NCBI GenBank assembly: GCA_029858305.1
Contig: JAOUFI010000001.1
Location: 179,031-243,030, forward strand
DNA from: Candidatus Thorarchaeota archaeon
Lineage (GTDB): Archaea; Asgardarchaeota; Thorarchaeia; Thorarchaeales; Thorarchaeaceae
Length of the DNA stretch: 64,000 nt
Reading direction: 5' to 3'
In this document: positions 10,926 through 28,252 of the stretch, piece by piece
Numbering within the stretch: position 1 is the first letter of the stretch
Layout of the letters: each line of letters starts with the position of its first letter
The notes under the pieces: generated by a model
Seen by the model: the letters and a program-made list of their open reading frames with translations, nothing else
Told to the model about the DNA's origin: nothing
Databases searched by the model: none
Program-made: the position numbers and the translations under genes

Positions 10926-10995
10926 ACACGAATCGCGTACAAACTGGGCTTTAGCATTTTGGAGTAAGAATATCATAGGAAATGTGAAGAAAAAG

Positions 10996-11017
10996 TGGAT
11001 TCCCAGGCGAGATTTGA
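10996..11017 (-). repeat. Degenerate direct repeat of tRNA-Thr 3' end (att-like)
   Basis: TCAAATCTCGCCTGGGAATCCA vs spliced tRNA-Thr TCAAATCTCGCCTGGGGCTCCA (20/22). Confidence 0.8.
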
Positions 11018-11118
11018 TAGGAGGACTTTCGCGTTCTAATATAATTTCTTGCGTTGTGCGAAATCAGCAATAAGCAGCAATCAGGTTTCGGAACTATTGA
11101 TTAAAAGAGGAAAGAAGA

Positions 11119-11433
11119 ATGAGAACGAATTTAAAAATCACAGTTGTGAAAACATTCACTCCTGAGGATGTATTTGGTCCAAATCACGGTATTACAAGAA
11201 ATGGTCAACCATTTATTCCATGTGATCATAAGGAGGGCGAAGAGTTTATTGTAAACAATCAATATGAGAAACCAGAGGGATTCTGTGAGCGAGCTTGGCA
11301 GGATCTCTATTCAACAATAATGGTCTATTATCATGGTGGGGACTATAGATTTCCCTCGCCTGGAGCAACATACCAGCCATGCGGGGACGGAGTAAACCCT
11401 GTTGTCTTCAAGATAGAGAAGCTGGAAGATTGA
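11119..11433 (+). CDS. TIGR04076-family protein
   Basis: KITVVK...PC...EGEEF...PEGFCERAW...CGDGVNPVVFKIEK. Confidence 0.85.
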   Translation: MRTNLKITVVKTFTPEDVFGPNHGITRNGQPFIPCDHKEGEEFIVNNQYEKPEGFCERAWQDLYSTIMVYYHGGDYRFPSPGATYQPCGDGVNPVVFKIEKLED

Positions 11434-11439
11434 AAGAAG

Positions 11440-11547
11440 TGGAGCCCCAGGCGAGATTTGTTCCACGTTGAGAGAATCTCAGCGTGTTTGAACTCGCGGC
11501 CTCCTCCTTACCAAGGAGGCGATCTAACCGGTCTAAGCTACTGGGGC
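11440..11547 (-). tRNA. tRNA-Thr(GGT) with a 30-nt T-loop intron (58/59; 11458..11487)
   Basis: GCCCCAG/CTGGGGC acceptor, CCTCC-TTGGTAA-GGAGG arm, BHB GTTC-AAA...GAAC-AAA, CCA encoded. Confidence 0.92.
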
Positions 11548-11637
11548 TTTTCTATGACATCCACAAAAAGAGGTGTCATTCGGATTTCGCTTGAGGAGTA
11601 GAGATAAAGATTTCGTCTATGTCAAATTTGGAAAATA

Positions 11638-12252
11638 CTAACGCCACTGAATCTTGGCTAGAAGCGGTGTCAGCGCCCGAGTGGCCTTGGCTCCCTTGAA
11701 TCTAGCTATTGCAGTGAGAGGCACTTCTGAATCCAAGCCCAGCTGCATAAGACTCGGGCAATCGAACAGACCAGATATATCCAAAGAGACCAGTTCGTTC
11801 TTAGTAAGGGTCAGGTTCCGTAGTTTCTTACATTTTTTAAGAGCTGAGAGATCTATACTCTCAAGTTTATTTTCATAGAGGTGGAGAGCTTTCAAACTCT
11901 TGCAACCTCCAAGGGGAGTAAGATCAAGAGTTCTGAGATTATTGAATGAGAGATCCAAATGCATCAGGTTGGTGCATCCTTCCAAAGGGGAGAGGTCAAT
12001 GACTTCGAGCTCATTGCTCCCGAGGTTGAGTTCTAGTAGATTGCCATTGCCGTGAAGGACTGAGAGGTCAAGGCTTTGAATCTCATTTCCGGAGAGTGTC
12101 AATACTTCAAGATTTGGAAATTGGGCAAGTGGAGTGAGATCAATTGAGCCGATTCTCTTATCGCCGAGATTGATTGATGTTGTGTTTGAGTCAAACCGTT
12201 CTACTACTTTTCCACCTTTCTTTGTTTCACTCCAGATGGTGATTTCTTCCAT
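11638..12252 (-). CDS. Leucine-rich repeat protein
   Basis: About six 22-aa LxxLxLxxNxLxxLDLxPL repeats. Confidence 0.9.
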   Translation of the reverse strand: MEEITIWSETKKGGKVVERFDSNTTSINLGDKRIGSIDLTPLAQFPNLEVLTLSGNEIQSLDLSVLHGNGNLLELNLGSNELEVIDLSPLEGCTNLMHLDLSFNNLRTLDLTPLGGCKSLKALHLYENKLESIDLSALKKCKKLRNLTLTKNELVSLDISGLFDCPSLMQLGLDSEVPLTAIARFKGAKATRALTPLLAKIQWR

Positions 12253-12418
12253 TTATGATACATCCATGTATCCTGCGCACCCGCTGCTTAATAATTTGGT
12301 AGGGTCTGAAACACAAGGATTTTCAAAAATTCTAGAGGATTATATTGATATTGTTGATTCAAGTCTGATTTTGTTGCGGCGGTATTGAAGAATCGACTCA
12401 ATGCCAAGGTGGTTGAAA

Positions 12419-13372
12419 ATGCATCATAGTGTGAATCAAGGATCGCTTGAGATTGTCAAAGAGATTCTTGATAGGAAAAACGAACTCATCTGTAGTGTGA
12501 AGGAGATGAAATCAGGAACAACGCTCATCGATGCAGGTATCCAGTGCAAAGGGAGCGTGGAACTTGGTAGACTTATCGGAGAAACTTGCCTTGGCGGATT
12601 GGGGGTGGTCAGAATAACGAGGATGATTATTGGTGATTTGGACTTACCTGCAGTCATAGTCAGTGTGGAACGTCCAAAGATTGGAACGCTTGCGTCGCAA
12701 TATGCTGGCTGGAGCATAAGAATAGGTGGAAATTATGCTCTGGGTTCAGGTCCAGCTAGAGCCTTGGCGAGAGTGGAAAAGAGCCTTTACGAAGAAATAG
12801 GCTATCAAGATACATCAAAAAAGAGCGTGATTATACTCGAAACTAGAGAGATGCCTACTGAAGAGGTGGTAGAGCACATTGCAAAAAAATGCGGAATTAC
12901 TTCATCCAATCTGTATTGTATCGTAGTACCAACCGCGAGCATAGCTGGTTCAGTTCAAATATCCTCTAGAATAGTTGGAGTAGGACTTCACAAGCTTCGA
13001 CATATTGGATTTGACCTAGAAAGAATAAGAAGAGGTCATGGGGTGGCTCCAATTGCACCGGTGGAAAAGCACGATAATAAGGCGATGGGAGTTACCAATG
13101 ATTGCATACGCTACGGCGGGAGAACCTTTTATCATATAAGCACAGATAGTGATGATTTGCAAGATATTGTAGAGAGAGTTCCAGCATCCACTTCAACCCA
13201 TTACGAACAATCCTTCAATGACTTGTTCAAGAATGCCAGCTTTGATTTCTATAAATTAGACCCACTAATCTTCGGTCCTGCCGAGGTTACATTTAATCAC
13301 ATCGAGAGTGGAAAAATATACCAGGCCGGAGGAGTGAATCCCGACATTCTTCGACACTCTTTTGGCATATGA
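12419..13372 (+). CDS. mch: Methenyltetrahydromethanopterin cyclohydrolase homologue
   Basis: ASQYAGW, GSGPARAL, PTASIAGSVQIS, TND, FDFYKLDP-IFGPAEV. Confidence 0.88.
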   Translation: MHHSVNQGSLEIVKEILDRKNELICSVKEMKSGTTLIDAGIQCKGSVELGRLIGETCLGGLGVVRITRMIIGDLDLPAVIVSVERPKIGTLASQYAGWSIRIGGNYALGSGPARALARVEKSLYEEIGYQDTSKKSVIILETREMPTEEVVEHIAKKCGITSSNLYCIVVPTASIAGSVQISSRIVGVGLHKLRHIGFDLERIRRGHGVAPIAPVEKHDNKAMGVTNDCIRYGGRTFYHISTDSDDLQDIVERVPASTSTHYEQSFNDLFKNASFDFYKLDPLIFGPAEVTFNHIESGKIYQAGGVNPDILRHSFGI

Positions 13373-13381
13373 ATTGGAACA

Positions 13382-14902
13382 CTACGTAACATCCATCTTC
13401 TCAACCTCTTCACTCTCTTTCTTATCTGCCTCAATTACAACTTCAGCCACTGGAATAGGATTCTTGAAAGCTTCTCGTATCATCATTGTTGCTGCAAGGG
13501 AGATGATTGCACAGAGTAGTAGAGTCAGTGTAAACCCTCCAGACTGAGGGAGCAACCAACCAAAGAAAGCAATGAGAGGCATTGAAACCACCATTACTAG
13601 AGTGGGCTGTAAGGAATACATTGAGTTTCGAATTCGATTAGGTACTACATCAAGCATGACTCTCTGGGTGAGAATATCTGCTATTGCACCAAACATATTC
13701 AGAGCAACGAAGAGTATGAAAATGAGTGCCACGGGAATAATTGTCTGAACAGGGATTTCTATCAAAGGCAGACTCGTAAATGGAATGAAGACGCTAATGA
13801 ATTCTGTAGTTTCTGGATCAGCCCCGGGAAAAATATACACAATCGCAGCAAGAACAAGATAGAAGATGACACCAGTAAACTGAAGCAGCCTAAATCGCGG
13901 AATCCATTTCTTCGGATCGAACCGTTTTGCGATTACACCACTTCTCTCGTTTGCAAGAGCCTGTGGTAGAAAGACAAGTGTACGAAATGCAGAAACTGCT
14001 ACCATTGTGACAAGATAGCTGAAGTAGAGCGGGAATAAAATCAGGTTCCACCAAACTGGTCCTGTGCTCCACAACACCACACCACCAAGAATTAGATAGG
14101 TGACAAATCGACTTGACCACAGAAACCTGAACCCGTCTTTAAGCAGAGACCCATACTCTGCAATAGTTGGACGTTTTTCTTGCTCCTTCCGGACTCCAGG
14201 CAGGTCTCTGATTAATCTGAACACTACTAATGCAAGAAGAATAGCAAAAACTGCTTGGAGATTGAAGACCCACTGTTCACCATAGAACCATGCAAGCCAT
14301 GAACCAGGAAGGAGAACAAGTGTTGATGATACCTGCCAGACCATGCCCATCCGACCCCAAAACACGCCGTACATCTTTCGGTCCTTATCCTGAGGCATTG
14401 CTACTCTATAGTTGTTATCAAACCAAGCATTGAACGCGCCACTCTCCTGTGAGGATCCTAGACCAAACAGGAAATAGATTATCACATAGAGGTAGAAAGG
14501 CGCAGGTGTATCTTTGACAATCTGAGCAGAGAGCCAGAACGCTGCGGCATAGCATAGAAGAGCTGAGGATATCACATATCTTTGCCCAATCCAATCACCT
14601 AACACGCCTGTAGGATAATCAAGGACAGTCTGCACTGCCATTTGAATGACAACAAGGATTCCAACAAGCGTGAGCCCGGCAAAGTAGTCACCATTACCAA
14701 GAGACTCTGCAATGAAGATCATCCAGAATGTGGTGCTTATTTGAAAGCTTGCTGCAAAGGAGGGAAGTAAGACTGATAGAATCTTCACTAATCGAGCAGC
14801 ATCGGATGTGGCTCCTTCTAGACCAAACATGCGAGCGTATCGGCTTGATACTATCTCAGGTTGTTCAATCTCAGATTCTACAGTCATAGGCATCGTCAGC
14901 AC
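13382..14902 (-). CDS. MFS transporter
   Basis: DYPTGVLGDWIGQR motif A, SGAFNAW, about 12 hydrophobic segments. Confidence 0.88.
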   Translation of the reverse strand: MLTMPMTVESEIEQPEIVSSRYARMFGLEGATSDAARLVKILSVLLPSFAASFQISTTFWMIFIAESLGNGDYFAGLTLVGILVVIQMAVQTVLDYPTGVLGDWIGQRYVISSALLCYAAAFWLSAQIVKDTPAPFYLYVIIYFLFGLGSSQESGAFNAWFDNNYRVAMPQDKDRKMYGVFWGRMGMVWQVSSTLVLLPGSWLAWFYGEQWVFNLQAVFAILLALVVFRLIRDLPGVRKEQEKRPTIAEYGSLLKDGFRFLWSSRFVTYLILGGVVLWSTGPVWWNLILFPLYFSYLVTMVAVSAFRTLVFLPQALANERSGVIAKRFDPKKWIPRFRLLQFTGVIFYLVLAAIVYIFPGADPETTEFISVFIPFTSLPLIEIPVQTIIPVALIFILFVALNMFGAIADILTQRVMLDVVPNRIRNSMYSLQPTLVMVVSMPLIAFFGWLLPQSGGFTLTLLLCAIISLAATMMIREAFKNPIPVAEVVIEADKKESEEVEKMDVT

Positions 14903-14983
14903 TTATTCCATATATGGCTTAATACTTGGGCAGTAAACAAGTCTTTTATCAAGTAATCTCTCAACAATCAAGAGCGGTGCAAT

Positions 14984-15265
14984 ATGACAAGAATCACTGT
15001 TCGTTTTCGGGGACCCATTGCAGGACGCATCACAGGGGGTGGTGTGGAGGTTGAGCTTCAAAAAAGCACTACCATAGGTGAACTACTAAACCAAGTGATG
15101 AAGCAAGTACCATACCTCCAAACTATATGGAACAGTCCTACTGAGATTGACCGAGACTCTATGATACTGTGTAATGAAGTAGATATAGGAATAGGAGGCG
15201 GGCTCAGTTCAATAGTAAATGATGGAGATGTCCTTACCATTTTGCCTCTTGTTCATGGCGGTTAG
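14984..15265 (+). CDS. MoaD/SAMP/Urm1-like ubiquitin-fold sulfur carrier
   Basis: beta-grasp pattern, DGDVLTILPLVHGG C-terminal diglycine. Confidence 0.88.
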   Translation: MTRITVRFRGPIAGRITGGGVEVELQKSTTIGELLNQVMKQVPYLQTIWNSPTEIDRDSMILCNEVDIGIGGGLSSIVNDGDVLTILPLVHGG

Positions 15266-15786
15266 ATGAACCTCTCGCCTGCATGAATTGCTTCAGTGTT
15301 GACTTTAAGAGCCTTCGGAGGAACAAATTCAACGAGTGTCTTTTCCAGAACATCAATCGGGAACAAATCTGCCTTCTTTACAAGAGCTCCGAGCATTACC
15401 ATGTTTGCCACGAGCCGAAGACCAAGTTCATCAGCAGATCTCATGGCGGGAATCTCTATGACCTCAAACCCTTCTATTTTGTTGGTTTTCACTAAATCTG
15501 GATCAGCAAGAACAATACTTCCCTTCTTTGCACCACCAATGTAGAGATCTAGAGCCTTCTGAGACATGGCAACAAAGTAGTCAGATTGGCGTACCTTTGG
15601 ATAATGAATCGGTTGATCACTAATTATTACTTCGCTTTTTGCAGCTGTTCCACGGGCTTCAGGACCGTAACTTTGGCTCTGCACAGCCTTGAGATTTCCA
15701 TAGACAACAGCTGCATGCCCGAGAATTACACCTGCAAGGACCACTCCCATTCCTCCGGTGCCAGCAATCCGAATCTCTGTTCTCAT
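15262..15786 (-). CDS. korC: 2-oxoacid:ferredoxin oxidoreductase gamma subunit
   Basis: IAGTGGMGVV, QSYGPEARG, NMVMLGA. Confidence 0.9.
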   Translation of the reverse strand: MRTEIRIAGTGGMGVVLAGVILGHAAVVYGNLKAVQSQSYGPEARGTAAKSEVIISDQPIHYPKVRQSDYFVAMSQKALDLYIGGAKKGSIVLADPDLVKTNKIEGFEVIEIPAMRSADELGLRLVANMVMLGALVKKADLFPIDVLEKTLVEFVPPKALKVNTEAIHAGERFI

Positions 15787-15792
15787 CGGAGC

Positions 15793-16623
15793 CTATTCCT
15801 CCAGATTTGCATAGATTGCTCTCATTGAGTCAATGAACTCTATCTCATCTCGGTCTGCAAAAACTCCAAGGTCGATACCATCTCTTGTTGGAATTTTTAG
15901 GTCAACAGGAGCGTCTTTCTTACGTACAGGATATTTCTTGAACCAAGCAATCATTTCTTCAGGAGTACTAGTGCCAGTCTTCCGACCATAAGATGTTGGG
16001 CATTGTGAGATGATTTCAACAAAGGTGAATCCTTTTTTCTCAAGTGCTGTTCTGATTGCACGTGCTGCTTGAACGGGATGAGCTGTCGTCCATCTGGCAA
16101 CATAATTAGCTCCAGCCGCAGCAACCAGACGCGAGATGTCGAATGGACGCTCCGGATTGCCGTAAGGAGATGTGCTAGTCCGGTCTCCTGTGAAGGTTGT
16201 AGGACCCACTTGGCCCCCTGTCATACCATAGATGTAGTTGTTCACGCAAATCACAGTCATATCGATGTTCCGTCGGGCAGCATGGATGAGGTGATTTCCA
16301 CCGATAGCAGCCAAGTCGCCATCCCCGCTAATCACGACCACTTTGAGTTCTGGATTAGCCAGCTTCAATCCTGTGGCAAACGCAATAGCTCTTCCATGAG
16401 TTGTGTGAAGTGTATCTGCTTTGAAATAGGGTGATGTGATCCAAGAACTGCAACCAATTCCTGAAACAAATGTAAACTTGCTAAGATCCTCATGACCTAA
16501 ATCTTTCACTGCTTTAATGAAAGAGTTGGTGACCTCTCCAGCTCCGCACCCGCTACAAAAAGTACTTGGCAGGCTCTCTTGACGTAAGTACTGCAGCGCA
16601 AAGTGTTTTGAAGTTGATGTCAA
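15793..16623 (-). CDS. korB: 2-oxoacid:ferredoxin oxidoreductase beta subunit
   Basis: FCSGCG, SGIGC, HGRA, GDGD...N TPP motif, YGMTGGQ, QCPT. Confidence 0.93.
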   Translation of the reverse strand: MTSTSKHFALQYLRQESLPSTFCSGCGAGEVTNSFIKAVKDLGHEDLSKFTFVSGIGCSSWITSPYFKADTLHTTHGRAIAFATGLKLANPELKVVVISGDGDLAAIGGNHLIHAARRNIDMTVICVNNYIYGMTGGQVGPTTFTGDRTSTSPYGNPERPFDISRLVAAAGANYVARWTTAHPVQAARAIRTALEKKGFTFVEIISQCPTSYGRKTGTSTPEEMIAWFKKYPVRKKDAPVDLKIPTRDGIDLGVFADRDEIEFIDSMRAIYANLEE

Positions 16624-16730
16624 CACATTCACCTATGTCCACTGAGATAGCGGCCTGCAGAGCCTAATAATCCATTCTCTATAGACCTTAGCTATCTCGC
16701 GCGATCATGAGTGTCCGATTCTTTCTAATT

Positions 16731-17417
16731 TCAAAAAACTGCTGTTAGTTGTGGGGCTTCTTCCGCTTTGATCTTTCTTTCCCTATGATACCAAGGATTA
16801 GTCAGCGCTAATGCACCTACGACCATGGAAATAGTGAGAAGAACGTCAGGGATGTAGAAAAAGGGAGTAGAGATGAGCGGGACTCGCATAACTTGGCTGG
16901 CCATTCCAAACAAGACAGAGATGATCATTAGATCACTTCTTACCTCTCTTAGACGTCCGGTTCTCCATGTTACTACGAAAGTGAACACCATCATGATGCC
17001 AAGGCCTATAATCACGGGAATGGTCATTATCATAACGAATTGCTCAGTGACTCCAAAGAGTGCAATTGACACCCAATAAATCAGAAGTATGTACACGAGA
17101 CGATTATGATATTTCTGAATCGAAGGAGCCCATATTTGAAGGAGTGCTCCTAGAACTGGAACTGTTGCACCACTGATGATGACTGATCGAAGACGGAAGA
17201 GCTCCATTGATGGCGCAAGTACTCCGAGATTCGGAAGGGTCAGTATAATCATGTTGAGCGTCTGACTCACAAAAGATATCGCGAAGACTAGAGGCAAGTC
17301 TGTAAGAAGGCGTACTTCTTGGCGATACCATTGCCTTCCAAGATATACACTGATTACTCCAGAGAATAAAATCGTCGCAATACTTGAAACTAATACTAAT
17401 TCAGCGCCTGCTTGCAT
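16731..17417 (-). CDS. Multi-pass membrane protein (6-7 TM), unknown function
   Basis: Alternating hydrophobic segments; directly downstream of CPBP gene. Confidence 0.75.
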   Translation of the reverse strand: MQAGAELVLVSSIATILFSGVISVYLGRQWYRQEVRLLTDLPLVFAISFVSQTLNMIILTLPNLGVLAPSMELFRLRSVIISGATVPVLGALLQIWAPSIQKYHNRLVYILLIYWVSIALFGVTEQFVMIMTIPVIIGLGIMMVFTFVVTWRTGRLREVRSDLMIISVLFGMASQVMRVPLISTPFFYIPDVLLTISMVVGALALTNPWYHRERKIKAEEAPQLTAVF

Positions 17418-17420
17418 TTT

Positions 17421-18380
17421 CTATACCTCATTATTCATTCTATTAACTGAAATACCATCTTCTGTTTCCGCTATGTTCACATGACCAATTAGTTTCTGCC
17501 AACGGTCGGTTACCTGTTCAATCTTGTATTTCCAAAGGAATAATCCCAGTGGGACAAAAATAAGGAAGAACATCAGTAATGTAGTGATCATTAATTCGCC
17601 ATTTGAAAAGGCCAAGTCTGGACCTTGAATCACTGGTTCTGGACCAATCTTGAAGTTCTCGCTGGAAAAATTGATGATCGTGTGAATTGTTATTGGGCCA
17701 ATCAGAGAACTTGCAGAACTAAACCGCTCATAATAGATACCAAAGAACATCCCAAGCAGCATTGTAAAGAACACCATAGAAGCTACTTGACCAAGAACAT
17801 CTGTGCCACCATTGATAATTGGCCATCCAGCATGCCAGAAACCGAAGATGGTGGCAGATAGCACGATTGAAGCAATTGGAGCCATTCTTGTCTTGAATGC
17901 GTTTAGGAGAAGACCGCGGAACAAGGTTTCTTCAAGAAAGGCGTTTGTCAAGAAGAAGAGGAATGTGTACCCAAGAAGTTCCTGATTCAGAATGTGGAGT
18001 TCCAGGGGGTAGGTCGAGTCAAGGAAGAGTGCGTATACAATCGACCCACCAAAATCGATACCAACAGCGAATATTATCCCTATTAGAAGACCCACAACAA
18101 ATTGGGATTGTATTCTATCTCGAGATAGACCAAGCACTGACTCGATTTCTGTTGGACGATATTTCAAGAAGATAATTAAGATTATCAAAAACGGGAACAA
18201 TTTTGAAGGGAAAATATTCACCCAAGTGTCCCCAAGACCCAATACAAATTGATCAATAATTCTCCAGATAACTGCTATTAGTAGCATTATTCCACCTAAT
18301 TTGATAAGGCCGATTGATGCAGAAGGTGATACTTCCTGTTTGGTTGGTTCAATTAGTTCTTGGGTCTGTGTTGTTGCCAT
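17421..18380 (-). CDS. CPBP (CAAX/Rce1-like) intramembrane protease
   Basis: EETLFRG, FGFWH, HTIIN motifs. Confidence 0.9.
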   Translation of the reverse strand: MATTQTQELIEPTKQEVSPSASIGLIKLGGIMLLIAVIWRIIDQFVLGLGDTWVNIFPSKLFPFLIILIIFLKYRPTEIESVLGLSRDRIQSQFVVGLLIGIIFAVGIDFGGSIVYALFLDSTYPLELHILNQELLGYTFLFFLTNAFLEETLFRGLLLNAFKTRMAPIASIVLSATIFGFWHAGWPIINGGTDVLGQVASMVFFTMLLGMFFGIYYERFSSASSLIGPITIHTIINFSSENFKIGPEPVIQGPDLAFSNGELMITTLLMFFLIFVPLGLFLWKYKIEQVTDRWQKLIGHVNIAETEDGISVNRMNNEV

Positions 18381-18590
18381 TAAAAAGACCTCTACACTTC
18401 AATGGGTCTACATGTCATGATTGTCCATACAATTTAAGCACCGATATACTCGACCTCCAAATGATACGCATTCATTCGTCATACTAGATTGTTCTCTTGT
18501 GTTTTGGCGGATTCAGACTCTATCAGCAATTTTAAAACAGCAAACCCGCAGCCCTCAATTCCAAAGCTACTGCTTTAGTGGTGAAACTGA

Positions 18591-19025
18591 ATGTCAGATG
18601 TCGCAGCTATGAGAGCCTTCAACCGTGAATTAGCAGCGGTTGTCGGTGCAACAATTGAAGTAACAACAAAGGAAGGTAAGACCTACCAAGGAACTCTGAA
18701 AGGTATTGATCAAACTACTCTAAGCATCGTCTTGTCTGATGTTGCTGTTGTAGGTGGTGGAGCTAATATCCCAAAACTCTTCATCTATGGAAGTAGTATC
18801 AGTGCATTCTCTGTAGCGCAGAAAGAGATTAGTCTAGAAGGTCTTGCCAAGGAACTTGAGAAGACATTCCCACCAGGTGGTGTGAATTTCTATCCTGAGA
18901 CTGGCGTGATCGTTGTCATGAACAAGATCAGAATTACACCAGAGGGTGTGGATGGATCAGGACCTCTGTATGAACGTGTAGCAGCTATTGCTGATGAATG
19001 GTTAAAAGAACATGGTCTTGCATGA
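18591..19025 (+). CDS. Sm/Lsm protein with C-terminal extension (SmAP3-like)
   Basis: Sm1 pattern VTTKEGKTYQGTLKGID...IVLSD, FIYGSSI, plus about 70-aa extra domain. Confidence 0.8.
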   Translation: MSDVAAMRAFNRELAAVVGATIEVTTKEGKTYQGTLKGIDQTTLSIVLSDVAVVGGGANIPKLFIYGSSISAFSVAQKEISLEGLAKELEKTFPPGGVNFYPETGVIVVMNKIRITPEGVDGSGPLYERVAAIADEWLKEHGLA

Positions 19026-19137
19026 ATAAGAATCATGAACAGAAACTGAAATGGAAGAAATCTCAAGTCATATCTAGGCCAAACTAGGTATAATGCTGCG
19101 ACGGCGGATTGTCTGGAGTCATTCACCAAAATATGAA

Positions 19138-20576: not shown

Positions 20577-20700
20577 ATCGAGTCCTCTATGCAAGTGAGG
20601 AACTAGTGGGATATGGATATGTGTAATACTCACATACGGATAATATCTTGAAAATAAAATAAAGGAAGAAGAGAAGAGTATCCTCTTCTCTAGTCTATGC

Positions 20701-21423
20701 TTACTTAGTCTTACGACCAGTTCTTCTGGCTGCGATGTTACCCACCTTACGACCAGGTGGTGCATGTCTACTGACTGTGGATGGTCTGCCTGGAGACTGG
20801 TGAGAACCACCACCGTGAGGATGGGAACATGCATTCATTGCAGCACCACGAACCACTGGCCATTTTCGAGCCTTCCCGCGTATGGAGTGCCATACTGTCC
20901 CTGCCTTCAAGAACGGTTTTTCAGAACGGCCGCCTCCAGCAACAATGCCAATAGTTGCCCTACATCTTGGACTAAAGGATTTATGAGTTCCACTTGGAAG
21001 TCGAACTATAGCCTTTGTCTTGTCAATTGCTATAATCGTCGCAGCAAGACCAGATGCTTTGACATACTTGCCACCATCACCAGGACTGCCTTCGATATTG
21101 TATACTGGGGTACCTTCAGGGATGTACTCAAGCATCAGAGTGTTGCCATTTTCTAAACGTGCATTCTCACCACACTCTATTGTCTGGCCAACTTGTGCTC
21201 CCTCTGGTGCCACTATATAGTGAATCTTAGTTTCACCTTCATATCTCACTGCAGCAAGAGGTGCGCCTCTTCCAGATTCGTGGTGGAGATTGACAATTGT
21301 TCCCGCATAGGTCTTATCAGGTGCCCATTTAGGATGTCGAGCAGGTGCAATTTTCTTGTGGCTCGGAGACCTCCACTGAGTAGTGCCTCTACCTTTTCGC
21401 TGTACAAGTATACGTCTACCCAT
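20701..21423 (-). CDS. rpl2: 50S ribosomal protein uL2
   Basis: MGRRILVQRKGRG, VRGAAMNACSHPHGGG, PPGRKVG. Confidence 0.97.
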   Translation of the reverse strand: MGRRILVQRKGRGTTQWRSPSHKKIAPARHPKWAPDKTYAGTIVNLHHESGRGAPLAAVRYEGETKIHYIVAPEGAQVGQTIECGENARLENGNTLMLEYIPEGTPVYNIEGSPGDGGKYVKASGLAATIIAIDKTKAIVRLPSGTHKSFSPRCRATIGIVAGGGRSEKPFLKAGTVWHSIRGKARKWPVVRGAAMNACSHPHGGGSHQSPGRPSTVSRHAPPGRKVGNIAARRTGRKTK

Positions 21424-21435
21424 TCACAAGCCTCC

Positions 21436-21699
21436 TTAGAAGATCCCGAGGTTGGTCGCAACCTCTGCGGCACTGTACTCTGGTGCCAATTTCACAAATG
21501 CCTTCTTTTTCCCATCAGGCATTATGAGTGTGTTTACTTTCTCCACAACAACATCGTAGAGGGATTCTACAGCCCACCGAATGGTGTTCTTGTTTGCTTT
21601 GCGTTCTACATAGAATATTAGCTTGTTTTCCTGATCAACAGCCTCAAGACTGGCTTCTGTCACTACTGGTTGGATAATCACTTCATTTGGATCTCTCAT
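21436..21699 (-). CDS. rpl23: 50S ribosomal protein uL23
   Basis: PVVTE, KVNTLI...KKAFVKL. Confidence 0.95.
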   Translation of the reverse strand: MRDPNEVIIQPVVTEASLEAVDQENKLIFYVERKANKNTIRWAVESLYDVVVEKVNTLIMPDGKKKAFVKLAPEYSAAEVATNLGIF

Positions 21700-21710
21700 G
21701 ATATTTCACC

Positions 21711-22502
21711 TCAGAAGAACAGATTCTCCTTTCCAAGCCTGTCTATGGCTGAAGTTGTCCAGACCACTAGGCGACCAGCATGTGTTCCAGGAGCCAAGAG
21801 CTCCGCATTCAGACCATGGACTTCAGTAATGTCCACGCCAGGAAGATTCCTTGCAGCTGCACCAATTCCCGAGTCGTTGCCAACAACTATCAGTATTGAT
21901 TTGGGAGTCTTCATCTTTCTACCGCGCATCTTTCCCTTGCCAGCTCTGACATTTCGACCATTGCTAGCTCTCTCAAGATCATCACCAAGGCCTAAAGCAG
22001 TCAATGTTTCGTAGGCTTCCTTGGTTGTAGCAATTGATTCAAGCTTACTACTTACTACGAGTGGGATTATGGGAACTTTGTCTATGTTGTGACCTCTTTT
22101 CTTCACAAATTGAGCGTTTGCCGTAGCAGCTATTGCTGAACGGATAGCTAGTCGATTCTCTTTGATATTCACTCGCTCAATGAGCACTTTTCGTGCTTCA
22201 GGAGGGTGTGCCACTCGACCGCCTACCGTACCAGGAGCAAAACCTGCTTTATTGGCTGCACTCGTTCCACTACCCTTGATTCTTGGCATTCTTGACTTGC
22301 CATGACCAGTCTGCCAACTCTTAGCTGTGTTACGCTTGCCTGCTAATTCATCAACACCATGTGGTTGAAATCTACGTGACTGAACAGCTAGCACAGCCCG
22401 CTTAATCACATCCGGACGATATGGAGTGTCAAAATGGGGTGGTAGCTCGATGGTTTCTTTACTGGGTTTTCCAGTTAATGTGTACGTCTTTATGTTTGCC
22501 AT
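21711..22502 (-). CDS. rpl4: 50S ribosomal protein uL4
   Basis: RPDVIKRAV, GGRVAHPP, RAGKGKMRGR, LAPGTHAGRL; GGAGGA SD. Confidence 0.96.
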   Translation of the reverse strand: MANIKTYTLTGKPSKETIELPPHFDTPYRPDVIKRAVLAVQSRRFQPHGVDELAGKRNTAKSWQTGHGKSRMPRIKGSGTSAANKAGFAPGTVGGRVAHPPEARKVLIERVNIKENRLAIRSAIAATANAQFVKKRGHNIDKVPIIPLVVSSKLESIATTKEAYETLTALGLGDDLERASNGRNVRAGKGKMRGRKMKTPKSILIVVGNDSGIGAAARNLPGVDITEVHGLNAELLAPGTHAGRLVVWTTSAIDRLGKENLFF

Positions 22503-22515
22503 AGATGTCATCCTC

Positions 22516-23526
22516 CTACTGCTTCGATGATGTGCTGATGTAGCTCACCTGCATTGGACCTTCTTTTTGACCCATCTTTGGACGCATGGCGAGCCGGATT
22601 CGTACTGGCCGTTTTATTGTACCAGGAACTGATCCATGAAGCATTATGTAATCACCACGAATGACACCGTAGTTCACAAATCCGCTAGAGGGCGTGATTT
22701 CTTCTCCACGTTCACCCATCTTGAGAATTCTGTTATTGTAACTTGTCCGAGTGTGGAAACCCGTCTGACCAGGTCTAGGAACGGTGTATCTGATACTAGA
22801 TGGAGTCCAAGGACCAATACAACCAATTCCACGTTTTGTCTTTCTGGATTTGTGTTGGAGAATTCTAACTCCCCAGCGGCGGACCGGACCCTGAAATCCA
22901 TGACCCTTGGTCACTGCAATCGTATCAACGAGGATTCCCTCATCTAGGATGTCTGCTACACGGAGATCGGTGCCAAGAATACTCTTGGCGTACTCAAAGG
23001 CTGTTCTGATATCTCCGCCTGTACCTATTTTGTATTCCACTACATCAGGCTTCTTTTTCGATAGTCCCGCAAGTCGTGGCTGAGTATGGATTAACATCCG
23101 AATCTCGGCAAACGAGTCGAGCTTTGACTCAAACTCTGCCATCTTGGTATCATGGTCATAGTCTTTTGGCAGTGGCAATGTCTTTCGAAGGTCTTCTGAC
23201 AAATTACTCGCAAGAACCTCTATTACAAGCCTGAGACCATAGGGAGTAGCCTCATAACCGCGAATTGAGAATGGCCTAATCGGAGGTGTATCAATCACTG
23301 TGACCGGCATGACAGTTTCCTGTCCGTTGAATGGACTGTCAGGGTTGTTTATTGTAACAACCGCATGGGTCATACCAGCTTTATATCCGATGAAACCAAG
23401 TAGTTTTGCAGCCGAGTCGTTATACTCAGGCCAGTTCTTGATACGGGGCACGAATTTAGAAGCCTTGCCTCGTGGCAAGTATGCTAGACTGCCACGCCTT
23501 GGTGCTTCTTTCTTTCTGTGTGCCAA
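22516..23526 (-). CDS. rpl3: 50S ribosomal protein uL3
   Basis: PRRGSLAYLPR, GYKAGMTH, TKGHGFQGPV; TTG start at 23526. Confidence 0.96.
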   Translation of the reverse strand: MAHRKKEAPRRGSLAYLPRGKASKFVPRIKNWPEYNDSAAKLLGFIGYKAGMTHAVVTINNPDSPFNGQETVMPVTVIDTPPIRPFSIRGYEATPYGLRLVIEVLASNLSEDLRKTLPLPKDYDHDTKMAEFESKLDSFAEIRMLIHTQPRLAGLSKKKPDVVEYKIGTGGDIRTAFEYAKSILGTDLRVADILDEGILVDTIAVTKGHGFQGPVRRWGVRILQHKSRKTKRGIGCIGPWTPSSIRYTVPRPGQTGFHTRTSYNNRILKMGERGEEITPSSGFVNYGVIRGDYIMLHGSVPGTIKRPVRIRLAMRPKMGQKEGPMQVSYISTSSKQ

Positions 23527-23663
23527 TTTTAACACCACAATAATATCCGTATCGAATGGCCGGTAAACTAGGCTATTCGTACTACAACGGACCCGCCAAG
23601 GGGGGATTGTTTTTAAAACTTGCCTACTGACCAAGTACCAATTCGGGGTACTGAAGAAATTAG

Positions 23664-26030
23664 CTAGAATCGATTCTGCTCAGTTCTAGCAAGGATTTCG
23701 TTTTGCAGATCCTTACCTATGTTAACAAAATAGTCCGAGTATCCAGCAACTCGAACAATAAGGTTCTGATAATTTTCTGGATGAGTCTGAGCATCTCGCA
23801 AGGTTTCAGCTTTTACAACATTGAACTGAATATGGTGACCACCTAATTTGAAGTACGTAAGGACTAAATCCGCAAGCTTTCGGCGCCCCTCTTTGTCTGC
23901 GAGAACATCAGGCATAAACTTCTGATTTAGAAGGGTACCTCCGGTTTTAGAATGGTCAATCTTGGCGACAGATTTGATTACAGCAGTAGGCCCACTCTTA
24001 TCAGCTCCATGACTAGGAGATATCCCGTCAGATAAAGGACCACCAGCTTTTCTACCATCAGGAGTTGCACCTGTTACCTGTCCAAAGTAGATGTGTACAG
24101 TGGTTGGAAGAAGATTAACGCGATATTCTCCACCCTTTGTATTTGGACGGCCATCGATTGAGTCAAAATATACCTGAAAGACTGATTGAGCTATCGCATC
24201 TGCATAGTCATCATCATTTCCATACTTTGGCGTCTTGTTCAACAACGTCATTCTCAAAGCATCATTTTCTTCAAAATCAGTCCTCATCGCTTCAAGCAAC
24301 TCTGCCATGGTGTACTTCTTTTTATCGAAGACATGATATTTGATTGCAGAGAGCGAATCTGTGATAGTCCCCATGCCAACGCCCTGAATGTAGGTTGAAT
24401 TGTATCGAGGACCACCATCATGGTAGTTTCTACCCTTCATAATGCAATCATCAAAAAGAAGGGACATGAAAGGCGCAGGCATATATTCTGCGTAGAGTCG
24501 TTCGATTATATTATTGCCTTTGATTTTGACATCAATAAAGTATCGTAGTTGCTTCTTATAGGCTGTGAATAGTTCTTCAAATGACGTGAACTCTGTTACA
24601 TTTCCTGTTTCTATTCCGACTCTCTTCCCTGTTCGAGGATCGACACCGTTGTTGAGGGTTATTTCTAGTATTTTTGGCCAGTTACAGTATCCTGTCAGGA
24701 TACAGCTCTCTTTTCCAAAAGCGCTGATTGTGACACAACCACTTGGTCCTCCAACCCTTGCGTCCTCGATTGACTTTCCCGCTCGAAGAAACTCTTTGAT
24801 TATCACATCTGTGTTGAACAGAGAGGGTTGACCGAACCCTTCCTTCACCACATCAATTGCGCTCATCAAGAAACTATCAGGATTCTCCGTACTCATCTGA
24901 ATACATATACTCGGTTGTATCAACCGCATCTCATTGCAGACCTCAAGAATGAGATAAGAAAGATCGTTGACAGCATCCGTACCGTCAGATTTCAGGCCCC
25001 CAGTATTAATCAGAGAGAAGTCTTGGTATGTACCACTCTGCTGTTCAGTGATTTCGACTTTTGGTGGAGCTGGCTGATTATTGAACTTGATCCAGAAACA
25101 CTGCAAAAGCTCTTTTGAGAACTCCTTTGTAAGGGTTCCATTACTGATATCTCTCTGATAGAAGGGGTAGAGGTTCAGGTCCAAGCGACCAGGATTGAAA
25201 CTATCCCAGACATTGAGTTCTATAATTACGCCAAGGTGAATAAACCAGTATGCCTGTAAAGCCTCCCAGAAATTACGTGGGGGCTTGGCTGGAACGTGAG
25301 CGCATATCTCTGCAATTTGATCTAGTTCTTTCTTCCGGACAGGATTGGTCTCCGACTCGGCAAGTTCCCTCGCTTTGTCAGCATGACGCTGTGCAAAGGA
25401 AATCATCGCTTCTGCTGCAATCTGCATTGCCTTGAGCTCTTGCTCCTTTGCGTATGCCTTGTCATCATCATAATAATCTAATTTGGAGAGAGCTTGTTGG
25501 ATGTCATCAATGAAATCGAGAAGTCCACGACGATAGATTTTGTCATCAAGAATTGCGTGTCCGGGAGCTCTTTGTTCCATAAACTCAGTAAATACGCCAG
25601 CCTCAAAGGCGGCCATCCATTGATCTGACATTACACTGAAAACACGTTCACGTATTGTCCTACCAGTCCAATAGGGAATAATCTCATCACGATAGGTGCT
25701 GAGGGCTTCATCGCTGACCAAGAAAGGTGTGCGTTCTCGTGAATTAGCAATCTTGAGGTCATTAAGAGAATGACAACAGAGTTCAGGGTATGTTGGTGTG
25801 GCCTGTGGTGCGGACCCACGTTCACCAACGATTAACTCTCCATCATTGATGATGATTGTCTTATTTTCCAGAATATACTTGAATGCCGTTGCCCTAGCTA
25901 CTGGATTTGATACTGTATCTGCCCCGCCATTCTGATAGAAATCAGTCAGGAGTTCAGCGCGTTCAGTGCAGATATAGGGTTTAGTACGAACACTCTGCTC
26001 TCGTAATTTCTGAACGCGTTCTGTCAACAT
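23664..26030 (-). CDS. Glycyl radical enzyme, HypD (4-hydroxyproline dehydratase)-like clade with variant active site
   Basis: RVAGYS glycyl loop; FTEFMEQRAPGH, WDSFNPGRLD, TYQDF, LPTTVH match HypD; Cys loop SGCVT. Confidence 0.9.
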   Translation of the reverse strand: MLTERVQKLREQSVRTKPYICTERAELLTDFYQNGGADTVSNPVARATAFKYILENKTIIINDGELIVGERGSAPQATPTYPELCCHSLNDLKIANSRERTPFLVSDEALSTYRDEIIPYWTGRTIRERVFSVMSDQWMAAFEAGVFTEFMEQRAPGHAILDDKIYRRGLLDFIDDIQQALSKLDYYDDDKAYAKEQELKAMQIAAEAMISFAQRHADKARELAESETNPVRKKELDQIAEICAHVPAKPPRNFWEALQAYWFIHLGVIIELNVWDSFNPGRLDLNLYPFYQRDISNGTLTKEFSKELLQCFWIKFNNQPAPPKVEITEQQSGTYQDFSLINTGGLKSDGTDAVNDLSYLILEVCNEMRLIQPSICIQMSTENPDSFLMSAIDVVKEGFGQPSLFNTDVIIKEFLRAGKSIEDARVGGPSGCVTISAFGKESCILTGYCNWPKILEITLNNGVDPRTGKRVGIETGNVTEFTSFEELFTAYKKQLRYFIDVKIKGNNIIERLYAEYMPAPFMSLLFDDCIMKGRNYHDGGPRYNSTYIQGVGMGTITDSLSAIKYHVFDKKKYTMAELLEAMRTDFEENDALRMTLLNKTPKYGNDDDYADAIAQSVFQVYFDSIDGRPNTKGGEYRVNLLPTTVHIYFGQVTGATPDGRKAGGPLSDGISPSHGADKSGPTAVIKSVAKIDHSKTGGTLLNQKFMPDVLADKEGRRKLADLVLTYFKLGGHHIQFNVVKAETLRDAQTHPENYQNLIVRVAGYSDYFVNIGKDLQNEILARTEQNRF

Positions 26031-26117
26031 AGTGTGAACCTCGCTGAATCTCCACAAACGTATCGAGTTTGATAGATACCTCATCATGTGTCTAAAAAGG
26101 TCACGTATAAGGAATGG

Positions 26118-26975
26118 TTAATCGTAGAACCCCTGTCTTGCTATCACCTTTCCTACTGAATTGTTCAAAAGACCAAGACTGACTATGAGAGCCTCTTCAA
26201 GCCGTACTGTTTCGGATCCTTGATCATCTATTGTGTTTATCCAAAAATCAATTTGACGTTTGATATCATCTCTCTGTACATCGCAAAGCTCCAAGATGCC
26301 CCTATTGGGGTCCCCAAACACAGCCAAGACTGAGCCTGTGCTGGACACTGTTGATATCAAATCTTTCTCCAACTGAAAGAAAGGGGGCGCTTTTCTAGAG
26401 AAGCCAATTCGGGTCATATTTCTAGACCGCTCCAGTAGCTCTAGTAGGGTTCCGGTTCGGCTTGCTTCAAATCCCCAATAGACTGGAGCTTCTAGTCGGT
26501 CTATGATGGATAAAGAGAGAGTCGGAGATACAGCTTCAACTTTGAATAAGGTAGGGTCACGTTCACTCAGCAACGTTGGAAAATCGATGAGATTATCGAA
26601 TCCTAAATCAATCTTGCCAGGACGAACTTGAATTCCCCACCTCACTGTACCAGCAGTTAACTCTGATATTTTTGATAGAAGGGGGTGACTACGGGTTCGT
26701 AAGGGTGGAAGAAGTCCTGCATATTGAAGGGAGGGCGACTGGGGAAAGATTCTCCTTCTAAGATATTGGGGTGTGTCCATAAACCGTAGAATCTTCACGA
26801 GAAGATCAGCATCCCTTTTTTGCGTAGCACGGAGTTTTTCTGTGCTATAGACAAACACCTCTTCTACTCGGAATATTGCAAGTGTTCGAGCGATTTGACC
26901 GACCTTTACCGTCTTCTGTCGTAGATCGGTGCAGTCAATCAATGAGGTGTCAGGAAGTGCTACCTTGAGGGTCAT
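26118..26975 (-). CDS. SPOUT-family RNA methyltransferase (COG2106-like)
   Basis: GQIARTLAIFRV, TPQYLRR, GLLPPLRT-H, QGSETVRLEEAL. Confidence 0.88.
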   Translation of the reverse strand: MTLKVALPDTSLIDCTDLRQKTVKVGQIARTLAIFRVEEVFVYSTEKLRATQKRDADLLVKILRFMDTPQYLRRRIFPQSPSLQYAGLLPPLRTRSHPLLSKISELTAGTVRWGIQVRPGKIDLGFDNLIDFPTLLSERDPTLFKVEAVSPTLSLSIIDRLEAPVYWGFEASRTGTLLELLERSRNMTRIGFSRKAPPFFQLEKDLISTVSSTGSVLAVFGDPNRGILELCDVQRDDIKRQIDFWINTIDDQGSETVRLEEALIVSLGLLNNSVGKVIARQGFYD

Positions 26976-26987
26976 AGTAAAGTTCTC

Positions 26988-27425
26988 CTACAAATCTAAA
27001 GTAAACCAGAGTGTTGTTCGGTCTGTGCCTTCAAGAATCTTCATGTCAGCATAGGTCATGGCCTTGACCTCGGTTCGTGCAATGTGTCGATTAAAATCAA
27101 TGCTTTCACCAAATGCTCTCCCCTTAAGGGAAAAACCTGTTAATTTCTGAGAAATATCAATGATTTCAAACCGTGAGAAGAATTGATTGTTGATATCAAT
27201 AAGAGAGATGAGGGTTCCAATCCATTCCACAAGAAGCTCTTCAAGATCAATGCCTTGTACAGATACTTCAACAGATTCTAACGAGGCGACCGTGGTCGTA
27301 TCAAGTATTACTTCGAATGTCGCTTTTGCGGCCTCTTCAAATGCATCCTTTATTGTCGGAGCCCAGCACTCGATAGTGATGTCAGCTGTGTGCTCGTGGA
27401 ATCTGAATCCTCTTTCCAATTGCAT
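26988..27425 (-). CDS. Archease
   Basis: EHTADI, EVKAMTY, C-terminal LDL. Confidence 0.93.
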   Translation of the reverse strand: MQLERGFRFHEHTADITIECWAPTIKDAFEEAAKATFEVILDTTTVASLESVEVSVQGIDLEELLVEWIGTLISLIDINNQFFSRFEIIDISQKLTGFSLKGRAFGESIDFNRHIARTEVKAMTYADMKILEGTDRTTLWFTLDL

Positions 27426-27486
27426 AGTCTCCAATGGCACCCACGACAAGAAGCTTAAAAGGCATTTCCAACGGTGGAAACCCTAT

Positions 27487-27602
27487 GCCGAGGTAGCCAA
27501 GCCCGGACCACGGCGCCGGTCTTGAAAACCGGTGTGTTCGCACCCACGAGTTCAAAAAATGTCACAATTTGTGATATCGAGCATATCTCGTCCTCGGCGC
27601 CA
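27487..27602 (+). tRNA. tRNA-Ser(TGA) with a 29-nt T-loop intron (58/59; 27556..27584)
   Basis: GCCGAGG/CCTCGGC acceptor, CCGGT-CTTGAAA-ACCGG arm, long variable arm, G73-CCA, BHB GTTC-AAA...GAGC-ATA. Confidence 0.92.
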
Positions 27603-27690
27603 TCTCCATTTTGCTGATTGATGTTCCGTCGCACTGTAAATTCTACATGTGGTGATAATTCACAGAGAGAGTTGGACAAATGTCCATGAG

Positions 27691-28143
27691 CTAGGCTGTC
27701 CCCTTGCCGAAGAGCTTCATTCCTGAAATTGCTGACGCGAGCACAATCATAGCAATCATCATGATATATGCCATGTATGGGATGTTGAAACCGAGTACAG
27801 GAAAAGTCTGAACAAGTTCTGTAACGCAGATAACGACTGAACTGATCGTGGCGAGCACCCACCCTTGTTTTGAACTCCTCCAGAAGATCAAGTAGACCAT
27901 GTATAGAATGAATATCTCTACAATCAGGACAGCAAGCCCCATCGTCCGGAGGTGCTCTGAAATCAAGTATGCTAATTGAGGATACATACTGACTAACTCT
28001 TCCCATGTTAGCTCGCTGTATGCGAGATCATCGAGAAACAACGAGCCCATGATGAAATATGACAAGTAGATAGCGATGTGAATTATGACTGTGAATACCC
28101 AGAAGAAAATGGCAACCTTACTTGAGATTGTTGATCGATCCAT
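27691..28143 (-). CDS. Four-TM membrane protein (cargo between tRNA-Ser and its att-like copy)
   Basis: Four hydrophobic segments; AAGGTG SD. Confidence 0.75.
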   Translation of the reverse strand: MDRSTISSKVAIFFWVFTVIIHIAIYLSYFIMGSLFLDDLAYSELTWEELVSMYPQLAYLISEHLRTMGLAVLIVEIFILYMVYLIFWRSSKQGWVLATISSVVICVTELVQTFPVLGFNIPYMAYIMMIAMIVLASAISGMKLFGKGTA

Positions 28144-28230
28144 GGTTTGACACCTTCCGTTTGCAGTCAGACAGAAATCATACTCCGATATTTAATATGT
28201 GATGTTTATGAAGGGTGAAGTCCTACTCCC

Positions 28231-28252
28231 TCAAATCTAACCCTCGGCGCCA
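28231..28252 (+). repeat. Degenerate direct repeat of tRNA-Ser 3' end (att-like)
   Basis: TCAAATCTAACCCTCGGCGCCA vs spliced tRNA-Ser TCAAATCTCGTCCTCGGCGCCA (19/22). Confidence 0.78.

Follow-up and report, generated by a model that had tools for sequence, protein, structure and literature searches.

Introduction

Elements integrated at the 3' ends of transfer RNA (tRNA) genes by archaeal tyrosine integrases of the SSV and pNOB8 types leave tRNA gene fragments and attachment (att) repeats, attL and attR, that form tandem arrays, have empty counterparts in related genomes and often start in the T-loop. The T-loop class is a recognized class of tyrosine-integrase att sites, and Williams reportedly distinguished three sublocation classes in 2002. 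Here we analyzed a stretch of 64,000 nucleotides (the window) of contig JAOUFI010000001.1 from a Candidatus Thorarchaeota genome (assembly GCA_029858305.1). In this window, a tRNA-Thr(GGT) gene and a tRNA-Ser(TGA) gene each contain an intron in the T-loop, between positions 58 and 59 (58/59), and each is followed by a one-gene cassette and by an intron-less copy of the tRNA 3' end. These arrays resemble SSV- and pNOB8-type sites in the respects just named; they differ in that neither the arrays and their surroundings nor the rest of the assembly yielded an integrase gene or fragment, and in that the units span 0.2-3.5 kb and often hold one gene. Comparison with other genomes of the genus leads us to consider it probable that ordinary insertion at tRNA 3' ends and independent bulge-helix-bulge (BHB) introns have met at the Thr and Ser loci.

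Introns and integration have been connected before. The disrupted tRNA-Thr(GGU) of Caldiarchaeum (Sugahara et al. 2012, PMC3293823) is the same tRNA species, and that report links introns to att recombination and suggests that they may shield attB. There, the repeat is of a 5' fragment, the intron lies at 24/25 and a recombinase gene is present. Unlike in the Caldiarchaeum model, the cassette content here differs at an intron-bearing site, and intron type is not tied to cassette allele. A preprint on non-canonical BHB introns in Asgard archaea (10.64898/2026.10.13.758758) describes insertions of about 30 nt at BHB motifs, common in Asgard T-arms, with repeated gains and losses between close relatives, and hallmark genes of mobile elements were not enriched near the gains; the introns here are nothing out of the ordinary beside these. 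Its main text contains none of the terms "integrase," "attachment," and "T-loop," nor the name Thorarchaeia, and 3'-end scars seem not to have been examined there. Two further sources describe the use of intron-bearing tRNA genes as integration sites in Thaumarchaeota (a review, PMC8371274) and integration at tRNA genes in Heimdallarchaeia (PMC8813620). Our literature search found no paper on such scars in Thorarchaeota. Integron cassette arrays lacking an integrase are known as CALINs. These and the bacterial cis-mobilizable elements (CIMEs) share with our loci att-flanked tandem units without a recombinase of their own. The likeness is one of architecture only: those systems are bacterial, and here neither an attC-like structure nor IntI was seen.

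Results

Direct repeats of tRNA 3' ends

We refer to the genome that holds the window as G000 (3.04 Mb in 205 contigs, 88.9% complete); other G-numbers denote its relatives in the genus. A preliminary description of the window had reported both tRNA genes with 58/59 introns, each with an intron-less copy starting at TCAAAT, and no such copy for tRNA-Pro or tRNA-Trp, whose T-loops are intact. All of these, introns included, were found again (Table 1), and neither tRNA-Pro nor tRNA-Trp had a copy of its 3' end within 5 kb at ≤4 mismatches. The Thr copy, TCAAATCTCGCCTGGGAATCCA, lies 426 nt downstream of its tRNA on the same strand, and its last 18 nt differ from exon 2 at two positions, both in the acceptor strand (0.01 matches expected from 100 shuffles). 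The Ser copy, TCAAATCTAACCCTCGGCGCCA, follows 628 nt downstream, also on the same strand, with three mismatches in its last 18 nt, all in the 3' strand of the T-stem (0 matches expected from shuffles). Both copies join TCAA straight to AT..., as the spliced tRNA would read: to the left of the 18-mer, identity extends for 4 nt against the spliced tRNA, versus 3 nt (Thr) or 0 nt (Ser) against the unspliced gene. By this comparison, both copies come from a form of the site that had no intron.

Table 1. Positions of the Thr and Ser loci, their neighbors and the other tRNA genes, counted from the first nucleotide of the window
Feature	Position	Strand	Basis and remarks
tRNA-Thr(GGT), CCA encoded	11440..11547	-	Sequence reading; acceptor and T-arm pairing by custom scanner. 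Exon 1, 11488-11547; 30-nt 58/59 intron, 11458-11487; exon 2, 11440-11457
Single cassette gene, 104 aa, TIGR04076 family	11119..11433	+	NCBIfam TIGR04076, E=2e-16; between tRNA-Thr and 3' copy
Intron-less tRNA-Thr 3'-end copy TCAAATCTCGCCTGGGAATCCA (T55 to CCA), attR-like scar	10996..11017	-	
DUF5661 gene just past the Thr copy	10647..10976	-	Pfam PF18905, E=3.5e-22
Archease gene, conserved upstream neighbor of tRNA-Ser	26988..27449	-	Pfam PF01951, E=4.8e-36
tRNA-Ser(TGA), CCA encoded	27487..27602	+	Sequence reading, custom scanner. Exon 1, 27487-27555; 29-nt T-loop intron, 27556-27584; exon 2, 27585-27602
Single cassette gene, 150 aa, hydrophobic by sequence	27691..28143	-	Open reading frame
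Intron-less tRNA-Ser 3'-end copy TCAAATCTAACCCTCGGCGCCA, displaced original end, attR-like	28231..28252	+	
TM1586-type nitroreductase gene, conserved downstream anchor of the Ser hot spot	28323..29099	+	Pfam PF14512, E=5.2e-49
tRNA-Pro, introns elsewhere, intact T-loop	8262..8402	-	No downstream copy
tRNA-Trp(CCA), canonical intron, intact T-loop	40562..40699	-	No downstream copy
tRNA-iMet(CAT), canonical intron and T-loop intron	63757..63886	+	Custom scanner

Such repeats are widespread in G000. We catalogued 41 tRNA genes (six with a 58/59 intron, two with a 53/54 intron, one odd case [His] and 32 with an intact T-arm) and searched within 5 kb of each for its last 18 nt at ≤4 mismatches. Downstream on the same strand there were 25 matches, compared with five upstream on the same strand (four of them from one tRNA-Arg array), one downstream on the opposite strand and three upstream on the opposite strand. 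Direct repetition of the tRNA 3' end, downstream and on the same strand, was above both these control placements and shuffles. At least one copy with ≤3 mismatches stood 0.2-3.5 kb from 14 of the 41 tRNAs: 3/6 with a 58/59 intron, 1/2 with a 53/54 intron, 0/1 for the odd His gene and 10/32 with an intact T-arm. Three 58/59 tRNAs were copy free; for two of these, the contig continues downstream for only 1.0 kb (Pro) or 114 nt (iMet, where the contig ends at position 64000). Arrays were found at Lys and Arg (three copies each) and at Tyr, Leu-GAG and Leu-CAG (two each). Distal copies were more decayed, with 0, 1 and 4 mismatches at increasing distance for Leu-GAG in G000 and, at the Ser locus of relatives, 1 and 3 (G014), 2 and 4 (G016) and 1 and 3 (G022).

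The Thr and Ser copies begin 4 nt before the intron position. Of 17 copies at tRNAs that lack a 58/59 intron, 11 likewise began 1-6 nt into the T-loop, and the TCAAAT start is therefore a property of the repeat rather than of the intron. Mismatches in imperfect copies were spread by eye over the whole 18-mer and do not locate the crossover point.

Several repeats outside the window have structures of their own. At C34:45911-49983 of G000, four full-length tRNA-Arg-like copies lie 1-1.2 kb apart together with one 3' fragment; two of the four seem to be functional, with anticodons read by eye as GCG and CCG, two are decayed, and small hydrophobic open reading frames (ORFs) stand between them. 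At C5:5420-7144, a gene that is complete past the second copy has its 3' end repeated in the 186 nt following tRNA-Tyr, so that one insertion duplicated flanking DNA besides the tRNA end. The tRNA-Leu(CAA) copy at C205:153079-153137 starts inside the canonical intron, and the repeat thus holds intron sequence. Locus L133 of G014 (contig C22) has a tRNA of 165 nt that contains a T-loop intron (locus positions 8228-8392, minus strand); 0.7-2.5 kb downstream there are four copies limited to the last 13-15 nt of this tRNA, each continuing with CTTCTT or CTTTTT. CCA is encoded in 41/41 of the catalogued G000 tRNA genes.

Empty sites and a stepwise cassette difference at tRNA-Ser

We followed tRNA-Ser(TGA) after the archease gene across 20 genomes of the genus. 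Two of these, G023 and G012, have empty sites, in which the nitroreductase gene comes directly after tRNA-Ser. The BLAST match between G023 and the window starts at the first base of the G000 Ser copy, and an alignment of eight genomes showed homology between the sequence that follows the distal Ser copies and that which follows the intact tRNA in G023 and G012. Elsewhere, genomes that retain both anchors have a gap of about 0.5 to 4 kb between tRNA and nitroreductase, filled with genes that differ between species. The empty sites show that the Ser copy is the displaced original 3' end of the tRNA, an attR-like scar of insertion; the preliminary description had also taken the copies to be att-like. 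For the Thr locus, no relative with an empty (uninterrupted) site was found.

Homologues of the tRNA-Ser T-loop intron are present in 12 of the 20 genomes. In G014, G011 and G009 the intron is homologous, with 25-27 of 30 nt identical by our own count. The order in G009 is tRNA-Ser, one cassette, copy and nitroreductase. G014 has, adjoining tRNA-Ser, an extra 637-nt unit with one 188-aa gene that is absent from G009 and G011. A repeat of 18-22 nt, beginning with the first base of exon 2, flanks this unit and gives two alignments to the one tRNA end present in G009. Recombination thus occurred at an intron-bearing tRNA-Ser, be it by gain in G014 or by loss elsewhere. Because the 637-nt difference arose with an inherited intron, the intron does not close the site. 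The sequence shared with an intron-less partner begins only at position 59, and since it consists of positions 59-76 and about 4 nt, the exchange in G014 probably fell within that stretch, 3' of the intron, rather than in the T-loop. The new copy comes after GTTCTA, which amounts to an imperfect T-loop half; this fits the idea that its spliced look came from the incoming DNA. Near-perfect copies stand beside intron-bearing tRNAs in several relatives: 58/59 tRNAs with a zero-mismatch copy were Thr in G022 and a Leu tRNA in G002, and single-mismatch Ser copies were found in G001, G014, G015, G022 and G010. An acetamidase-like cassette in G016 and G022 was considered as evidence of transfer and rejected, being no more similar than its flanks (76% versus 69% nucleotide identity).

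T-loop introns and the presence of copies

In G000, tRNAs with a 58/59 intron were not significantly richer in copies than all others (3/6 versus 11/35, Fisher p=0.39). The same locus can also be compared with and without the intron. At tRNA-Ser we omitted G008 and G018, with 332 and 30 nt of downstream DNA, and the intron-less G020, with 360 nt. Copies with ≤3 mismatches were then present in 7/10 genomes with the T-loop intron and in 4/7 without it (Fisher p=0.64), and copies with ≤1 mismatch in 5/10 and 2/7, respectively. Among 23 genomes with a tRNA-Thr(GGT) orthologue, 10 have a 58/59 intron, 5 have a 53/54 intron and 8 have no T-arm intron. After omission of G004 and G009, in which the contig ends, a copy stood beside 2/8 tRNAs of the first kind (G000 and G022), 1/5 of the second and 4/8 of the third (p=0.61 for 58/59 versus no T-arm intron). 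We observed no association between intron and copy within either locus.

For replication, the same scanner was applied to the DNA around all Rfam tRNA matches of three relatives. Copies accompanied 1/4 of the 58/59 tRNAs and 3/26 others in G001, 2/4 and 5/32 in G014, and 1/3 and 3/27 in G002. With G000 included, the pooled figures were 7/17 and 22/120.

BHB geometry of the T-loop introns

The sequence around the Thr intron reads GCGA-GTTC-AAA-CACG...CGTG-GAAC-AAA-TCTCGC. It provides the parts of a BHB motif: the T-stem as outer helix, a 4-bp central helix of GTTC and GAAC, two 3-nt bulges on opposite strands and an inner hairpin. By this reading, cuts within the bulges would give back TTCAAAT, a 7-nt T-loop. 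By inspection, each of the six 58/59 introns of G000 (Thr, Ser, Leu-CAG, Val-CAC, Pro and iMet) has this pattern, in relaxed variants for Ser and iMet. Minimum free energy folds show the T-stem and the intron hairpin; the central 4-bp helix is absent from them. Judged from these motifs, the 58/59 position is set by the RNA geometry of the BHB, in which G53-T54-T55-C56 would pair with the GAAC at the intron 3' end. That geometry is why the intron would lie at 58/59 and why its 3' end resembles a T-loop.

Turnover of introns and cassettes

Intron states change among close relatives. On the archease tree, Ser intron states are interspersed, and G024, which has no T-loop intron, falls in a clade (support 99/96) with the intron-bearing G008 and G016. 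At tRNA-Thr, identity between G000 and G007 is 83-93% in the DNA upstream of the gene and 83% from the point at which synteny returns; at the tRNA itself they differ in intron position (58/59 versus 53/54), and their cassette genes are only 58-70% identical. Such a pattern would suit the exchange of one whole block, beginning in the T-arm and ending at the far side of the cassette. As a separate comparison, the TIGR04076 protein of G000 is only 62% identical to that of G007, while the upstream leucine-rich-repeat gene reaches 88%. Cassette alleles do not track intron type: the alleles of G010 and G007 (74% identical) and those of G022 and G011 (80%) are associated, within each pair, with different intron positions.

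At locus L024 (G024, contig C314; about positions 335-480 of the locus), the tRNA-Thr(GGT) gene has no intron, and 45 nt separate it from a partial copy of tRNA-Thr. The partial copy, whose sequence begins in the anticodon loop, contains two introns, one canonical and one at 53/54; a further 3'-end copy stands at +638. It looks as if an intron-bearing 3' part was replaced by an intron-less one; recombination at tRNA-Thr can therefore swap intron content, here toward loss. Introns and cassettes seem, by these comparisons, to turn over independently.

Cassette genes

Cassettes of 0.4-0.7 kb with one intact gene were found at Thr, Ser, Lys c1, Leu-GAG c1 and c2, Ala c1 and Leu-CAG c1. The cassette genes are unrelated singletons, mostly without families, and include a GNAT acetyltransferase and a methyltransferase; comparison of 39 cassette ORFs at E≤1e-3 gave two similar pairs, one weak (24% identity) and one within a single orphan interval. 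Some intervals hold metabolic genes (named by eye), a flavin adenine dinucleotide-binding protein in G000 and a thiolase in relatives.

The Thr cassette protein had no match in Pfam. Homologues of this TIGR04076 gene follow tRNA-Thr in four relatives, with alleles 57-66% identical to that of G000. Its nearest allele is 80% identical and lies in another Thorarchaeota metagenome-assembled genome (MAG), where neither tRNA-Thr nor a copy was found beside it. The DUF5661 gene past the Thr copy falls within a 569-nt stretch of G000 without a counterpart in G007. The Ser cassette protein matched neither Pfam nor NCBIfam; a homologue, 77% identical, lies at a contig end in G011 with no tRNA found beside it.

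We looked for the Thr and Ser 3' ends in viral sequences. Exact 18-mers in IMG/VR numbered two for the Thr end and one for the Ser end, about chance level by a rough estimate; none lay beside a recognizable integrase, and one lay in a phage portal-like gene. In Logan contigs of four runs, the only loose ends were one at the 3' end of tRNA-Thr and another within the Ser copy, each in a single contig. Of the 20 runs that hold the stretch, none is recorded as an RNA run. The Logan contigs gave no trustworthy joint across either cassette; there was a single 677-nt skip, with 26 nt on one side.

Other features of the window and detection of tRNAs

The archease gene stood directly upstream of tRNA-Ser in 20/20 genomes examined, and the nitroreductase gene was downstream of it in 11 of the 20 fetched loci. 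Archease is a cofactor of the RtcB tRNA ligase. For tRNA-iMet, the only similar copy in the assembly was at C100:280-294 (15/15 nt); it starts in the T-stem and not at TCAAAT, and no overlap was found that would join the end of the window's contig to contig C100.

Default ARAGORN found one tRNA in the window, and Rfam at the gathering score found one tRNA and a 5S rRNA; both missed the intron-bearing tRNAs, and the Rfam match to tRNA-Thr was partial only (23.3 bits). Our scanner searched for an acceptor stem followed by CCA, and its first two versions gave mostly false positives. At 9190-9226, the window also has a weak match to a clustered regularly interspaced short palindromic repeat (CRISPR) family (24.3 bits, E=8.8) that is probably due to chance.

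Discussion

If the two loci arose as we think probable, tRNA 3' ends would be hot spots for site-specific insertion of small foreign pieces of DNA. Each insertion would rebuild the tRNA and push its former 3' end, with the original flank, downstream as a direct repeat. New pieces would enter beside the tRNA, so that arrays would grow and distal scars would be the more decayed. The tRNA-like block would usually begin in the T-loop and end a few bases past CCA. Where the tRNA bears an intron, the gene and an incoming intron-less att would share only positions 59-76 and about 4 nt, and exchange would take place there. The scar would keep the intron-less T-loop half of the incoming element, and hence the copy would look spliced without later intron gain. 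We infer that a tyrosine integrase was the agent of the insertions. Decayed or unbinned elements bearing an integrase would be the simplest source of the cassettes, MAGs often losing mobile elements.

Several observations weigh against this account. One is the missing enzyme. Searches of G000 with the tyrosine integrase families PF00589 and PF16795 gave no matches, and PF00239 (serine recombinase) gave a sub-threshold match only. PF00589 was present in only 8 of 28 genomes of the genus, mostly on short contigs, and around 20 PF00589 loci (the match and up to 1.5 kb on each side) no tRNA-like att was found at ≤2/16 mismatches, apart from one weak iMet-like match. Cassettes with perfect repeats already hold a single intact gene, which is unexpected for deletion remnants of large elements. 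The tRNA scanner was heuristic (CCA, U8 and G10 required), with anticodons read by eye. At the Thr locus, copies with ≤1 mismatch were commoner beside intron-less tRNAs (4/8) than beside 58/59 tRNAs (1/8). The best copies in G000 had 2, 3 and 3 mismatches at 58/59 tRNAs and 0-2 at the 11 others (Mann-Whitney p=0.007); this greater decay was not borne out by the genus data for Ser. Finally, the pooled four-genome figures show a borderline trend (Fisher p=0.052; stratified odds ratio 3.0, p=0.083) in favor of the preliminary description, which had called for a genome-wide test of association between T-loop introns and copies. Two orthologous loci account for five of the seven pooled positives (three from Ser-TGA, two from a Leu tRNA), and relatives with an intact T-loop have copies at both hot spots as well (G002 for Ser; G014 and G001 for Leu tRNAs). 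A better reading of the trend is that these hot-spot loci also tend to hold introns, and the four-genome sample may be compatible with a moderate real enrichment of copies at 58/59 tRNAs.

With PF00589 matches lacking in G000 and in 20 of the 28 genus genomes, no XerA-like enzyme was detectable by this family. Nor did an integrase-sized ORF stand out by eye in the inserts of 14 relatives, for which no scan against a family library was made.

Could the arrays instead be an integron-like platform, in which single-gene cassettes carry a site resembling a tRNA 3' end and are moved in trans by a recombinase that is unbinned or of an unrecognized family? The preliminary description had named a cassette system served by an integrase in trans as its alternative. 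We regard such a platform as unlikely. In its full form, tRNA 3' ends would be capture sites for cassettes with an 18-24-nt imitation of the tRNA end, taken up one at a time by a recombinase neither encoded in the arrays nor recognizable in most genomes; exchange would occur in the last ∼22 nt, and introns would neither mark nor block the site. This fuller version seems to us doubtful to the same degree. The one-gene units, some with perfect repeats and including the 188-aa gene within the 637 nt of G014, would suit such a system, as would the unrelated singleton genes and the lack of an integrase in cis. Yet whole genes between intergenic repeats are expected in any case, loss of mobile elements from MAGs could explain the missing integrase, and the genes in some intervals are ordinary metabolic ones. 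We identified no recombinase and saw no circular form; the integrase family searches found no dedicated integrase next to the arrays, and the repeat is a tRNA 3' end and not a palindromic attC. Moreover, to serve 14 different tRNAs, the system would have to have many specificities or depend on a single unusual enzyme.

A second alternative, following the model of Sugahara et al. (PMC3293823), is that the intron arrived with the element. The attP would have carried the intron and exon 2, with the crossover just 5' of the intron, and the intron-less end of the host would have been displaced. This predicts exactly what the window contains, namely, an intron-bearing tRNA, a cassette and an intron-less copy with host flank. 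The G000/G007 comparison, in which intron position and cassette differ together between similar flanks, is in keeping with it, and the G024 copy shows that recombination can swap intron content. On the other hand, close cassette alleles carry different introns (G010/G007 and G022/G011), and one Ser intron family persists while the proximal cassettes differ. We therefore find this origin quite improbable for the loci studied here.

The preliminary description had gone further, proposing that a T-loop intron was gained after integration, exactly on the crossover site, so as to block entry or lock in cargo; the copies would then be fossils of closed att sites. In favor of this view, the copies are intron-less, they carry 2-3 mismatches at 58/59 tRNAs in G000 (most others 0-1), the empty-site tRNA-Ser genes of G023 and G012 both lack a T-loop intron, and the pooled counts lean the same way. 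The idea of a protective intron is also in print, being cited in the discussion section of PMC3293823. Against it, the G014 cassette difference from G009 and G011 involves a tRNA-Ser that already bore its intron, and copies with 0-1 mismatch lie beside intron-bearing tRNAs in G022, G001, G014, G015, G010 and G002. A specific link between T-loop intron and copy was absent within loci, T-loop starts occur at intact tRNAs as well, the copies start upstream of the intron position rather than on it, and BHB geometry accounts for where the intron lies. Intron gain after integration is thus very improbable, and the rule that an intron on the crossover closes the site is not supported: the data overall fail to bear it out, and one locus contradicts it.

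That the copies are functional 3' halves of split tRNAs, or mature tRNA reverse transcribed up to a modified T-loop base, is so improbable that it can be set aside: although the copies match the spliced form, end in CCA and have an 18-nt core equal to positions 59-76, CCA is encoded in every catalogued gene, the two Thr (acceptor) and three Ser (T-stem) mismatches would break pairing, host flank travels with the copy, many copies run past position 58 and the Leu-CAA and G024 copies contain part of an intron and whole introns, respectively, so that duplication was at the DNA level; no intact split half was met in a partner search confined to the tRNA catalogue.

Ordinary insertion at tRNA 3' ends, with BHB introns arising independently, makes the finding a new example of already known kinds. 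Its interest lies in the natural experiments that the genus offers on the shielding of tRNA genes by introns, which has long been proposed: the same tRNA locus occurs with or without a T-loop intron and with zero to several cassettes. Shielding by a 58/59 intron is unsupported here, at least one cassette difference having arisen with the intron in place. About one in three tRNA genes of G000 has small inserts that lack an integrase and are filled with orphan genes, which makes tRNA ends a visible path by which an Asgard lineage gains genes. A trans-acting capture system, if true, would be new.

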